Below are positions 3,634-64,000 of a stretch of DNA of 64,000 nt, piece by piece (within the stretch, counting starts at the first letter, position 1; every line of letters begins with the position of its first letter). The translations under genes were made by a program, and so were the position numbers. Origin of the DNA: Schmidtea nova (taxonomy: Eukaryota). The stretch spans positions 19,282,001-19,346,000 of the forward strand of contig CM097884.1 of the NCBI GenBank assembly GCA_044892505.1, in the 5' to 3' direction. The notes under the pieces are model-generated. The model made no database searches. It had not been told where the DNA came from and was given only the letters and a program-made list of their open reading frames with translations.

Positions 3634-4416
3634 CAGGTAACCCTCGATTAACACGGTACTTGAATAACACGATTTCGCTTTAACACGGTTAAAATATCGC
3701 GGCACACCCTTGTCTAACACGATATTTTTTAGCACGGTTTTGATTTTACACGGCTTCAAAATTGATGAAAACCCTTAATTAACACGGTTTCAAAATTCAC
3801 ACTCAAATCATTAAGAGAAGGATTTGAGATTGCTAAAAAATTAGAAAACCATTTCCTTGACAATGATCCGTCAATGGACCGTAGTCTGAAAATTCAACGC
3901 GAGATAGAAAAATGCTTAGCTCCTTACCGAGAAGTCAAGAAAGAACTTTAAAAAAATCAAAAACAGGCTCTTCTCACTGATTTTATATCCATAATCCAGA
4001 AACCACAAGCGACTAATGAAGTGTCAGAAAATTATTCAAGTGATGAAGAAGCACCAGTAAAAATGAATCAGCCACACATTACACATTTTTTCAGAGATTT
4101 TGAGAGTGATGTTTAAGTTAAAAGTGATTATGATGGAATTTGTTAACTTCATCTATGATCAATTTAAATTATGCTATATTTTTATTTTGATATTTATGCA
4201 AAATGAATTAATTTATTTTACTATTCTTTGTTAAATTTTGATTTCAAGTCTGTTTGTATTTCAATCTTCTTTTTTTGTACTGGATGCATGAAAATAATAA
4301 AAACTATCAAAAACATAAATCATTTTTTAAATTTTTTGATAGTCTCGATTAACACGATTTTGATTAGCACGGAGTATTCTTGGAACCAAACTACCGTGTT
4401 AATCAAGGGTTACCTG
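3634..4416 (+). mobile_element. Internally deleted pogo/Tigger-like DNA transposon
   Basis: TA TSDs. 23-bp TIR CAGGTAACCC(T/C)TGATTAACACGG-type with 1 mismatch. Repeated AACACG(G/A) subterminal motifs. 3810-3990 reads ...KKLENHFLDNDPSMDRSLKIQREIEKCLAPYREVKKEL*KNQKQALLTDF, resembling a Tigger transposase C-terminus. Confidence 0.85.
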
Positions 4417-46269: not shown

Positions 46270-47095
46270 ACTATTTTATTTACACTTGTGGGATACAATC
46301 GTTTCATTGAAATGTTTCTATTTGATTGTGAAGTTCATGTTTGCCACAAAACGGTTTGTTGCAGTTGTCACACGCGTTGTACGTTTTGTTGTATCAGTTT
46401 TTTCGTCAACATTTGAAACGCTTTTGCTTTGCCTTCACTTGTTGGATCGTCGTTTCCGAGACTCTTGAACGGGCTTTCAAAGAGCTCTTGCTAGTTCCAA
46501 CATGAATCGTTTTCTGGGTATGTGACCAACGACTTCTTAGTATATAACATGTGCATTAATAAGAGCCTCTTCAAGTAAATCGTAGAACACACAAACTGGC
46601 CATCGTCTTGAGGCAGCTTTCGTACTATATACACGTAACATCTGGTCGAGGCAGTCTCCTCCAGTCTTGGTTTTGTTGTAGGTTAAAACAATCTCTAGTT
46701 TCTTCTTGTTTGAATCTGGACAAATGCGTGGACTGCAATGGAGCGTAGACATAAGGAACACATTATTTCTTGCTTTGCACTTGTAATTAACTAAGCGGAT
46801 GTCACCTGATTTGTGAAACATTGAATTATGTAGCTCTAAATTCATATTCTTAAAATCCGTGGGCAAGCTTCGCGAAGTCTTCCTCACTGTACCAAGATAA
46901 GTTATTTTGTGTTCCAATAAATGACTTGCTAATGGAGCAGAAGAAAAGAAATTGTCGGCTGTAACATGATAGCCACAATTTTTAACTGGTTCCACTAACA
47001 ATTTCACAACATGTTGTCCAACTGTTTCCCCTGACGGGCAAACAGTTGCCCGTTCCACTGATATTTTGAATGTGTTTAAGTAACTGAAGGTTGAA
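46270..47095 (-). pseudogene. piggyBac transposase, 3' half
   Basis: HVTADNFFSS, TYLGTVRK, YNKTKTGGDCLDQM and RRWPVCVF motifs. Cys-rich tail at ~46280-46400. Confidence 0.92.
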
Positions 47096-47418
47096 TGTTG
47101 CGGATTATGTTTGTGGTATTATTATGTTTGTTTGTTTGTTTGTAAAAATTTTAATTTTTTTTTAAATTTTAAAATTTGTAAATTTTATGTTGTGTTAAAA
47201 TTTTATTAAATTAAATTTTATTTTTAAAATAATACGTATGTTGTTCTATGTATAATGTTTGTTTTTAATTAAATTTTAAAAGATTTTTGTGTAATAAAAT
47301 AAAATAAATTTTTAAATTTTTAAATTAAAATTTTGATATGGTATTAAGATGATTTTTATTGATTAATTTGTTTAAATTTTAGCATATTTTCTATTTTATT
47401 ATTGATTGTCCTGATTGC

Positions 47419-50481: not shown

Positions 50482-51108
50482 TTAACTTTGTTTATAAACC
50501 ATTGATCCTTTGTTAAAAATATCAGTTCTAACACGTAATTCATCACTATATTGTTGAGTAAAATCGAGAAAAATATATCCATGTGGGATTTTAGTTGCAT
50601 CTTGAAATGCATTGATCAAGAAATTCCGATTATTAGGGTAAGCCTGTCTTGCAAGAAAATTAATAACGGTAGCATCTCTAGGATTTTTAAAAATAACTAG
50701 ATATTGAACATTCAAATTTCGAGTTCGATGACTTCCACCCTGATGAAATAAATTCTGAGTAATAAAAATAACTGTAACTTCTTTATGTCTAGCAATTTTT
50801 GTGAATAAATTATTGAAATCCTTCTCTTTATTTGTTTCTTGATACAAATCATCAATAATAATTACATCACCACTTCGTAATCTAGACGACCAGTTTTTAT
50901 CGAATCCCTTTATTATTGTCATTTTAATCTTACAAAATTGATCTTGAGTCATTCCATATTCATCATCAGCTCCCCTATGCCAATAAATTTTGTTAAATTT
51001 TGATTTGAATAATTTTGATTGTAATAATTTACAAACAAATAAAGTTTTTCCACTTCCACTTGGACCGACAATTTGATAAACTGCATCATTTCTTAACTCC
51101 ATTTTCAA
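50482..51108 (-). CDS. Polinton/Maverick A32-like (FtsK-HerA) DNA-packaging ATPase, intact 208 aa
   Basis: Walker A GPSGSGKT, Walker B IIIDD, FTKIARH, VIFITQNLF, R..NLNVQYLVIFKNPRD and DAT..PHGYIFLDF...DELRVRTDIF are diagnostic of Polinton ATPases. Confidence 0.92.
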   Translation of the reverse strand: MKMELRNDAVYQIVGPSGSGKTLFVCKLLQSKLFKSKFNKIYWHRGADDEYGMTQDQFCKIKMTIIKGFDKNWSSRLRSGDVIIIDDLYQETNKEKDFNNLFTKIARHKEVTVIFITQNLFHQGGSHRTRNLNVQYLVIFKNPRDATVINFLARQAYPNNRNFLINAFQDATKIPHGYIFLDFTQQYSDELRVRTDIFNKGSMVYKQS

Positions 51109-51254
51109 AATATTAAGAGTTTATGGATATTGTTTATATTTGTTTTAATTAATTGTTATACTTTTACGAAAATTATTTAAAAAATAATCAGTCTTATAAT
51201 GTTAAGGATTGATTTTTATGTTGAAACTTTTATTAATGCGTTCTTTTGTTTTTA

Positions 51255-62147: not shown

Positions 62148-62404
62148 CTGTGTCAAAGGAACAGAGAGAAATAATTCTTGAATATATTGCCTAGATAACC
62201 TAGAAAAGCCATACAAACTCATTATAATACAAATTTCTGAAAACAAGCAAGGATCCATCCAAAATAGTTGACTTTGACCACTTTTTAATCTTGCAAGATT
62301 GATTTCGGTTTTCTTTGTTTTTGAACTAATAGTAAGCATGAGACTGACTGATTTCAGGATCTTTTGCCGAAATTCAATAACTTCTTCACTGGCTAAATGG
62401 TAAA
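62148..62404 (-). CDS. RICTOR: RICTOR C-terminal-domain exon
   Basis: EFRQKILKSVSLMLTISSKTKKTEINLARLKSGQSQLFWMDPCLFSEICIIMSLYGFSRLSRQYIQELFLSV aligns with the remembered vertebrate Rictor end (LRKEVLRLV...FDDICLYSEVSHLLSHCTFRLPCRRFIQELFQDV). Donor CAG|GTATTA at 62148. Acceptor at 62392 or 62404. Confidence 0.75.
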
Positions 62405-63415
62405 CTTTAGTATTAACAAGGTTTACCAGAAATTAAATATTTTTATTCTCAAATTTTAAAATCTAAATAAATTTGAGACATTGGACCACGATTTATGGTA
62501 ACCAAACGTTCACATTTTTGTTATAAAATATGTCCAGCTCCACTCCTTTATAAGCAAGGATGTTTAATAATAAAAATAATCGGCAAAATGCCTATGAAAC
62601 AAATATAGTAGCACTTTGACTTCGCTCAACATACGAACTTTTTTGAGATACAAACTTTTTCATAACTGATTTTGACCTCTATGTACGAGCCTAGATTCGA
62701 GATACGAACCACTGTGGTGTTTGCTGTTATTAGGCCACATTTGTCTGGAATACGGCTTAATGAGTGGTATATGCAACACATGCAGAAGGTACATGTATTT
62801 TTGTGTATCTAATTTGATTTTTGTGTAATCAAACAATCTAATTAGTGAAGAGTTTTTTAGGTTTGTATAAATTAGTGTACTTTATGTATGCATTTCTTTT
62901 TGTGATGTCTATAGGAAGAATGATGGAATGACAGCAATACGCGAGTTCGAGACGAACGGGTATGTGTGTATGGAGAGGTACGTTAGTCGAGTATACCTAA
63001 GTCAAACGGAAAACGGGAAAATGATCTCTCCATTTCACGTCTTCCAACTCATAAAGGATCTGTTAGAAGAATAAAACATTGAGCTGATCATTGAAGAGAT
63101 ACAAGAGTTAAGAAGAGAGCGGTAAAAAGTAAAAGAAGAGCAAGAACTCTTGTTGGTAAACAGCTTTCAGTTCAGAAAGAACGTCTTCTCTATTTTTTCC
63201 TTTCAGAAAGAGAAAGCGAATAACGCTACCGTATTGAATAGTTTCCAGAGGCATTTTTCGAATATTCGCAAAAATATACTTAAACAATAATGGATTATTA
63301 AAACAAAATACATTTTCTTTACCTAAATATGTTGAAGTTTCAATATGTATGTTTCAATTTCTTTACTATTATTATTTCTATATTAGTCTCACGACTTATT
63401 GGGCGCACCACGTAC

Positions 63416-63448
63416 ACACTTGATAAAGGCTGTGCCAAAATATTATGT
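63416..63448 (+). ncRNA. Decayed minimal hammerhead, U3-A8 core (family B)
   Basis: ACAC TTGATAA A GGC TGT GCC AAAA TAT T ATGT: intact 3-bp stem II, G12 mutated to A. Confidence 0.5.
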
Positions 63449-63678
63449 ACTTAACCAAAATATTTTGATTTACATCAGTTTTCGTAGTTTAAAACGAACT
63501 ATGATACAAGTAGGTGTGTACAGCTACGTGTTACTCATAGTTGCTTTGTTCAATTTTTTATTTATTCTATTAGACATTTTTTTTAAATGGATATCAGGTA
63601 AGTTTATTTATCAAGATATCTTTTAATTTTTAATAAGTAAAGCTTGTGATACTTTGTGATACCCAGTGCAAATCCCCA

Positions 63679-63720
63679 ATAGCAGACTAGTTTCGAGCTT
63701 TTTGCTCTCATCAGTGCTAT
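63679..63720 (-). ncRNA. Canonical minimal type-I hammerhead ribozyme (family D)
   Basis: Minus strand reads ATAGCA CTGATGA GAGC AAAAA GCTC GAAA CTAG T C TGCTAT: 6-bp stem I, 4-bp stem II, palindromic ACTAGT stem III, GUC cleavage site. Confidence 0.9.
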
Positions 63721-64000
63721 GCAGGAGACGCGAAAATTTCTCTCCGCGCCAGGTAAGTATAAAACAAAGTCGAAAGATTTTGTTATATACTATACCTGGT
63801 ACACTGGATAAAACATCACTTGAATATGCAAGGCCCTACAGATAATCTGTAACTTGCAAACATGGCGTATGAATTTCATTTTCACCTCAGCGCACTAAAA
63901 GTGTTCAACAGAAACTGTTTGCAAGCGCACCCGACTGCCTTAGCTTCATTATTTCAATTTCTTGAAATATCTTTTGAAAAAAAAATATTTTTGTCGTATG

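Follow-up and report, generated by a model that had tools for sequence, protein, structure and literature searches.

The 64,000-nucleotide stretch analysed here, referred to as the window, ends in a copy of a hammerhead-bearing repeat that very likely carries the beginning of the host U1 snRNA. The minus-strand sequence at 63627-64000 almost certainly belongs to a non-LTR retrozyme, of which it represents a single copy; the repeat unit measures 380-382 nt and contains a type I hammerhead. As a retrozyme it is of a known kind; no U1-derived segment in a retrozyme was found in the literature searched, outside Repbase, retrozyme supplements and most subscription papers. Our leading interpretation, a tentative one, is that a template jump caught the start of U1 and that the retrozyme has kept it for an antisense U1 landing site. 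The copy, its two central parts and the gene that holds it are the following.

63627-64000, minus strand: retrozyme copy of roughly 407 nt, equal to 1.07 units and running from unit position 112 round to 135
63744-63760, minus strand: U1-derived segment ATACTTACCTGGCGCGG, identical to nucleotides 1-17 of host U1
63673-63728, minus strand: type I hammerhead with an extended stem I containing an internal loop, a stem II with an A-rich loop and a 2-bp helix III
62391-64000, minus strand: host rictor intron of about 1.8 kb with GT..AG ends, holding the copy in sense; the upstream exon lies just right of the window
62148-62390, minus strand: downstream rictor exon (tblastn of P0001 residues 1266-1346, 91% identity)

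The copy continues beyond the window end to about 64033, and no open reading frame of at least 120 amino acids runs across it. It lies in sense orientation, approximately 400 nt downstream of the rictor donor AAG|GTAAGT. BLAST matched a natural array unit to positions 1568-1974 of locus L001 at 95-96% identity. The unit lacks LTRs, has a GC content of approximately 37% by composition, and revealed no second ribozyme or other known RNA above chance in an Rfam-type search. In locus L017 the 380-nt period is repeated 5.9 times at 99% identity, and a genome search with a 341-nt query returned at least 76 matches (40 scored of 1,906 candidates), mostly 96-98% identical over the first 274 nt, many of them in arrays with a period of 380-382. 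Both arrays and monomers are present among the fetched family loci.

The hammerhead core CTGATGAG..GAAAC has a single match in the window, with 0.01 expected. Stem I spans 63728-63673, and helix III, with 2 bp and a 2-nt loop, sits inside the palindrome ACTAGT. Against Rfam HH9 the window hammerhead scores 22.9 bits (threshold 52), and an array copy scores 27.6 bits against Hammerhead_1 (threshold 34); the motif is therefore canonical in layout and not perfect by Rfam. The first-pass annotation had called it a perfect type I hammerhead, which is right as to the core, stems and cut triplet and overstated as to the gathering scores and a helix III of only 2 bp. Cleavage is predicted after C63685, at the 63684/63685 position that had been proposed.

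Genome-wide, type I hammerhead-core matches number 5,222, versus 48 in a reversed control, and 94 of the first 100 listed were assigned by eye to the U1-bearing 380-nt family. The exact U1 9-mer stands 20-45 nt before a hammerhead core at 3,975 genomic places and at none in the control; exact U1 16-mers number 3,883, again versus 0. The U1 5'-end-like sequence reported beside the hammerhead is indeed found at 63760-63744 on the minus strand, and it accompanies the ribozyme throughout the 380-nt family. Among 20 fetched loci outside the 3,975-place list, 23 cores were present: eight have point changes in the U1 motif, two are heavily decayed, 11 are truncated or inverted just upstream, and two, from other hammerhead families, lack the motif. 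The U1 piece is therefore a property of the 380-nt family and not of hammerheads at large. The type I motifs that differ in their flanks and carry no U1 piece are at L270:1076-1110 and L274:1135-1170, so hammerhead repeats as a class do not need one.

A general link between the U1 word and hammerheads was considered and rejected. A metagenome scan (22 of 64 collection parts) gave 117 loci, most without hammerhead stems. Four small groups had good stems. Judged by eye, L104 lies beside a bacterial-type transposase ORF, in L125 the word is the ribozyme's own stem I, L098/L139 look phage-like, and L045 and its kin form a dispersed eukaryote-like repeat with a 9-nt match only. In that last repeat (L045, L078, L138, L043 and kin), which is often inverted, AAACTTACCTG stands 24 nt before the core, perhaps by chance. 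Viral contigs contain the U1 word 25 times and its reverse complement 37 times, a chance level at which the general link was dismissed.

Descent of the segment from host U1 snRNA, not chance, is very likely from sequence comparison. Rfam reports 42 U1 matches in the genome. The dispersed U1 genes L031-L034 share their first 17 nt with the young element and the arrayed U1 gene L040 shares 14 nt, while the longest match of the segment to 10 U2, U4, U5, U6 and variant-U1 genes is 7-11 nt anywhere. The chance expectation of a 17-nt U1 match is 1.5e-9 per unit. Identity with host U1 goes beyond nucleotide 11, where it had been suggested that the likeness might stop: it reaches nucleotide 17 in young copies and 19 in the oldest. 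Within the window, the exact 11-mer ATACTTACCTG occurs once, at the U1 segment. The older-form 21-mer is found exactly at 52 genomic places, and all 12 of those fetched are old family copies, 74-87% identical to the young unit, that equal the arrayed U1 gene over 19 nt.

Descent from something other than U1 is very improbable. It would require that the segment arose as a plus-strand splice donor, or as a duplicate of the hammerhead stem I word UUACCUG, with the remainder due to chance. The Rfam HH9 consensus does have UUACCUG in stem I, variant letters in part of the X8 contigs (X8 being a run with relatives of the family) spell it as well, and in phage and bacterial DNA chance alone puts the 9-mer near hammerhead-like cores. 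Against this, the identity covers 17-19 nt from exactly U1 nucleotide 1 in two host paralogs, and the six bases past nucleotide 11 have by themselves a chance of 1e-5 to 2e-4. The plus strand of the segment does read as a perfect U1-binding site, CAG|GTAAGTAT, with its junction at 63752|63753, one base from the 63751/63752 first given. A simple plus-strand donor, which had been offered as the plainest origin, fails on two counts: a donor covers 9-11 nt of a 17-19-nt match, and rictor lies on the minus strand, so the motif is not that gene's donor. Of the contig joints that were listed (15 of 124 in one set, 6 in another), none falls at this donor, and contigs show presence only.

Two observations concern rictor itself. 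One X8 contig of 5,050 nt matches the rictor exon (L001:2110-2387) and goes no further than its two borders, either because X8 is assembled from RNA or because the introns have diverged. A second U1-like word, AAACTTACCTG, lies at 63595-63605 on the minus strand, immediately beyond the point where the copy ends on its 3' side. On the plus strand it reads AG|GTAAGT approximately 25 nt after TAG and resembles a tiny exon antisense to rictor. Around the 96 insertions, up to a distance of 150 nt, only one other such 8-mer has the same orientation.

Old and young copies match different U1 paralogs. Position 15 is T in 14 of 25 older copies, with TG outnumbering CA by 12 to 3 at that CpG, a more lopsided ratio than at other CpGs, and position 17 is A in 21 of 29 aligned copies. 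Subfamilies matching different paralogs could mean that the element tracks or re-captures the U1 in use. The switch may also be coincidence, because hairpin pairing permits only those letters at 15 and 17.

Both U1 matches, young and old, begin at U1 nucleotide 1, with no similarity upstream, and among the routes weighed a template jump of reverse transcriptase from element RNA onto U1 RNA fits best. Fresh inversions at the U1 spot, for example in L176, yield the same kind of fold-back as the one described below. A mini-U1 with an Sm site at AAUUUUCG was rejected, as those bases sit in a stem with compensatory changes.

Alternatively, the element might have taken the U1 promoter plus the first bases, with transcription from U1 +1. 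An ATGYAAAT-like box was located by motif search at -67 to -76 in nine of 12 host snRNA genes (U1, U2, U4, U5 and U6 genes at L034, L035, L037, L240, L251, L253, L306, L308 and L320), and this octamer-like box is likely a host snRNA promoter element. In sense, the unit contains the box at no more than the random level: its best score, 5.7, is below the median of 6.1 for random window stretches (n=457). Nor do insertion 5' boundaries peak at U1 +1, where four of 96 fall within 5 nt against approximately 3.7 expected; the U1 piece is thus not the element's 5' terminus. Newt satellite 2 offers a precedent, as described (PMC2220036), and a block 90-127 nt upstream, kept in runs X8 and X9, holds ATGAAATTCAT, which loosely resembles the upstream region of the arrayed U1 gene. 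Promoter capture is nonetheless very doubtful.

63851-63888, minus strand: second conserved block (L001 1792-1829), recognised from contig depth and joints and covered in two other organisms' runs as well

Runs X8 and X9 cover this block, which contains ATGAAATTCAT, but not the sequence to either side of it; the block is a candidate protein-binding site.

Folding predictions place the U1 segment in a compact structure beside the ribozyme.

63761-63799, minus strand: fold-back arm and hairpin top, the predicted pairing partner that would mask the U1 segment (probability of being unpaired no higher than 0.14)
63729-63748, minus strand: 8-bp hairpin with a GNRA loop, from the predicted fold and compensatory changes, overlapping U1 nucleotides 13-17
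63800-63809, minus strand: 5' strand of the closing helix in the predicted fold (the CCAGTG of the first-pass annotation)
63661-63670, minus strand: 3' strand of the closing helix in the predicted fold (its CACTGG), also present in the loose ends of runs X8 and X9

The 196-nt region is predicted to fold at -69.6 kcal/mol (z -6.3, with none of 200 shuffles as good), and the circular monomer at -115.4 kcal/mol (z -7.1, 40 shuffles), which makes it strongly self-paired in the model. The fold-back of the U1 segment with CCAGGTATAGTAT (63799-63787), already recognised in the sequence, is present in the predicted fold. Similarly, the inverted CCAGTG/CACTGG pair that was thought to bracket the unit exists as a predicted helix (63809-63800 with 63670-63661); it closes the junction of U1 segment, hairpin and ribozyme, and it is internal to the 380-nt unit instead of marking its ends. 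The GNRA loop is GAAA, and GCAA in old copies and in organism C. Read by hand, compensatory changes in the GNRA hairpin occur at unit positions 16/29 and 17/28 in X8 and at 19/26 in X9, and a compensatory pair in hammerhead stem I occurs at 45/78 in X9.

The two strands are predicted to behave differently. In sense RNA the arm would be synthesised first and would mask the motif at once, and opening nucleotides 1-11 is estimated to cost 13.6-17.4 kcal/mol at every length tried. In antisense RNA the perfect U1 site would be synthesised first and would stay open for approximately 30 nt of synthesis, over which opening the same bases is estimated at 3.4-5.4 kcal/mol, with a modelled U1 duplex of -14.0 kcal/mol.

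The first 12 nucleotides of the segment are probably under selection, as far as sequence comparison can indicate. In 29 aligned copies no recurrent change falls at nucleotides 1-12 and no majority-carried change in the catalytic core, while many fall in the arm, the hairpin top and the GNRA hairpin. Relatives are found in contigs of two other organisms (runs X8 and X9, from two studies); the contigs aligned had to be at least 80% alike, a cut-off biased towards conserved pieces, and run X6 was left out for having too few pieces. X8 has no listed variant at nucleotides 1-15 and compensated changes in the next hairpin; a minor X8 form (three contigs, agreement 0.62) keeps nucleotides 1-13 with that hairpin replaced. 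X9 has no listed variant at nucleotides 1-25 and diverges right upstream. In relatives and subfamilies the arm drifts yet stays complementary to the U1 segment. The hairpin shapes nucleotides 13-17, which changed with compensation in X8, so the constraint seems confined to about 12 nt. For nucleotides 1-12 to show no change at all, a rough estimate gives a chance of 0.05 in the host genome and 0.02-0.04 in X8. The borders were chosen after the fact; given this, and an alignment biased towards conserved pieces, the constraint is suggestive.

These data also bear on a reading only a little less credible than the antisense landing site, in which the U1 capture is real and the piece has no U1-related role, being a junction helix beside the ribozyme or a slowly decaying relic. 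The helix is perhaps read by the reverse transcriptase, or perhaps it docks the GNRA loop. In the predicted circle the U1 piece is always paired, the fold-back is kept as a structure in old copies and in X8 and X9, and the subfamily changes at nucleotides 15 and 17 are the only ones that pairing allows; the constraint statistics, moreover, are just 0.02-0.05 each. Yet pairing alone predicts changes in both strands of the helix, whereas only the partner arm changes, and the invariant stretch is the very part of U1 that reads splice sites.

Insertions were analysed at 96 loci, with overlapping fetches of the same array and two other hammerhead families left out, and their anatomy looks Penelope-driven.

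63627-63660, minus strand: start of the A/T-rich stretch (unit 101-180), the zone of insertion 3' ends

In 125 of 140 element runs the 3' end lies at unit 101-180, 25-100 nt beyond the cut site, and the A/T-rich stretch is, we infer, the zone where reverse transcription starts. The polarity of insertion suggests, in turn, that the ribozyme strand is the copied RNA. An (AAT)n or (AT)n microsatellite lies within 60 nt of the 3' end at 63 of the 96 loci, and 48 of them contain an inversion. By orientation, 125 loci comprise 52 head-to-head, 0 tail-to-tail, three complex and 70 single-orientation cases. The 5' ends are truncated and spread over the unit. Seven of the 96 5' boundaries fall at unit 78-83 (63683-63678), just past the predicted cut, and positions 68-77 have none. 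Some copies may have been made from cleaved linear RNA, but the hint is weak, as the count does not clearly exceed the local rate. Target-site duplications of retrozymes, where there are any, exceed 4 bp; for the window copy none is evident by eye, flanks being mostly microsatellite (63/96 loci). The earlier proposal of a retroelement targeting U1 is not supported, as insertions sit at microsatellites.

These features match those of Penelope-like elements as described in the sources consulted (PMC4209133, PMC8557442, PMC11167929). The genome contains an intact Penelope-like element with an 855-aa reverse transcriptase and GIY-YIG protein, terminal repeats and (AAT)n flanks. In this comparison with one Penelope-like family, the tail shared with the retrozyme is not significant (alignment p 0.08-0.25), and a piece of the element lies within 20 nt of an insertion at only two of 96 loci. 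The Penelope-like family (window 36278-36320, plus strand; L218-L234) carries a minimal hammerhead-like motif shortly before its 3' end, with U for core C3 (UUGACGA..GAAA), helix III AAUU and a 4-bp stem I; the start of this motif occurs 20 times, at 15 of 17 loci, with partial matches at window positions 26615 and 54369.

The insertion data are also relevant to a sense-strand role, in which the fold-back opens in sense RNA or the circle and the U1 mimic pairs with pre-mRNA 5' splice sites, for chromatin tethering or splicing disturbance. Insertion polarity makes the retrotransposed RNA the mimic-bearing strand, and the window copy lies in sense approximately 400 nt past AAG|GTAAGT, with which the motif is predicted to form a duplex of -12.5 kcal/mol. 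The fold-back arm, however, is predicted to bind more strongly (-17.2 kcal/mol) and is synthesised first. Donor words within 150 nt of the 96 insertions number five in sense and 10 antisense in 27,854 nt, a rate not above that of the farther flanks or the window, and the sense RNA of the 855-aa element offers the motif no strong partner site, the best being -8.0. The U1 mimic suggested at the outset is weak as an explanation, since the motif would be paired in sense RNA once made (14-17 kcal/mol predicted) and donor words are not enriched. This role is improbable, and both the antisense landing site and the structural or relic role rank above it.

For the antisense landing site the following course can be proposed. 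Host polymerase II would read through a copy or an array, and the hammerheads would excise 380-nt monomers that circularise, as the anatomy and published retrozymes suggest (PMC7229834). A Penelope-like reverse transcriptase would begin synthesis 25-100 nt downstream of the cut, within the A/T-rich stretch, and the cDNA would enter (AAT)n or (AT)n to give monomers, multimers and head-to-head inversions. At the origin of the element the enzyme would have switched from element RNA onto U1, copying to the U1 5' end, and a fold-back inversion would then have made the arm that now masks the U1 piece. At head-to-head inversions a read-through transcript would reach antisense copies before ribozyme-bearing ones. 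U1 binding prevents early transcript termination. The open antisense site would thus bind U1, which would protect the transcript from ending too soon where the DNA is very rich in A and T. Head-to-head transcripts would also make long double strands.

Such a landing-site function, derived from modelling, is plausible and still falls short of probable. It is ranked slightly above the structural or relic role because the antisense site is made first and is open, and because of the head-to-head inversions. Head-to-head geometry alone is no proof of use, as it is an ordinary by-product of Penelope insertion. Against the landing site, 70 of 125 loci have a single orientation, and the window copy has no upstream antisense site. 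The broader proposition, that a selfish circular-RNA retroelement retains the splice-site-reading end of U1 because selection favours contact with the splicing machinery, through either the antisense site or an unmasked mimic, is rather unlikely on present evidence.

Metazoan non-LTR retrozymes are described as 150-450-bp tandem type I hammerhead repeats (PMC7229834; bioRxiv 10.64898/2026.07.22.740005). The present family resembles them, as far as those descriptions go, in its low GC, self-paired predicted circle, range from monomers to multimers and coexistence with Penelope-like elements in the same genome, and it differs in its internal U1 segment in a conserved fold-back beside a GNRA hairpin. 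Like the hammerheads of Penelope-like pLTRs, it has a short helix III whose palindrome would suit cleavage as a dimer, and the two also share insertion at microsatellites, both tandem and inverted copies and reverse transcription that begins internally, according to the portions consulted (PMC4209133, PMC8557442, PMC11167929); unlike these elements as described, the unit has no ORF. The D. virilis pLTR intron is described as ending at helix I and so shares its strand with the ribozyme (PMC4209133, PMC8557442, PMC11167929); the donor-like word of the present unit is antisense to its ribozyme.

The nearest precedent for the capture, from what its description covers, is SINEU of crocodilians, where the U1 5' sequence on a non-autonomous retroelement is attributed to template switching, with repeated exchange with U1 sequence and no internal promoter found (PMC4494074). 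Both carry sequence from the U1 5' end, here 17-19 nt from U1 +1. SINEU heads are 5'-terminal, longer (the SINEU-2 U1/U2 junction is at approximately nucleotide 53) and Tx1-linked, with no ribozyme described in the text consulted (PMC4494074); in contrast, the present U1 piece differs in position, being internal to a circularly permuted ribozyme repeat, and the insertion anatomy appears Penelope-like, not Tx1. Newt satellite 2, a hammerhead repeat of approximately 330 bp, is said to use an snRNA-type promoter (PMC2220036, PMC7229834). Unlike that repeat, as described, the family owes its link with snRNA to a transcribed part of U1 and lacks the upstream box of the host snRNA genes.

Other features were encountered in the genome (G000). 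Its snRNA genes form tandem arrays accompanied by a few dispersed copies: U1 on C2 at 312.96-313.03 Mb (period approximately 2,523), U2 on C1 at 159.98-160.03 Mb (approximately 930), U4 on C2 at 331.20-331.26 Mb (approximately 1,740) and U6 on C2 at 333.38-333.42 Mb (approximately 739). U1-like genes above the Rfam cut-off but with altered splice-site-reading ends (AAACUAACCUGG; AAACUUACUUGG) are found at L035:1501-1653 (plus strand) and L036-L039. Those at L036-L039 have canonical U1 genes as neighbours at a distance of approximately 400 nt, and the L036/L037 pair has U5 genes close by too. All of these U1-like genes may encode variant U1 snRNAs. Within the window, ORF pieces at 19568-20445, 30589-32247, 46537-47118 and 50482-51120 are presumably of mariner-, hAT- and piggyBac-type transposases and a Polinton-type packaging ATPase.

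Promoterless retrozymes must somehow be transcribed, kept nuclear and matched with a reverse transcriptase. A 12-base U1 segment, seemingly as invariant as the catalytic core, provides a small, mutable handle on how they do so. The family is, in addition, an example of a ribozyme repeat, apparently Penelope-driven, that captured part of an snRNA. Through it a single genome contains perfect U1 sites by the thousand, and antisense intronic copies among them could affect splicing or polyadenylation.
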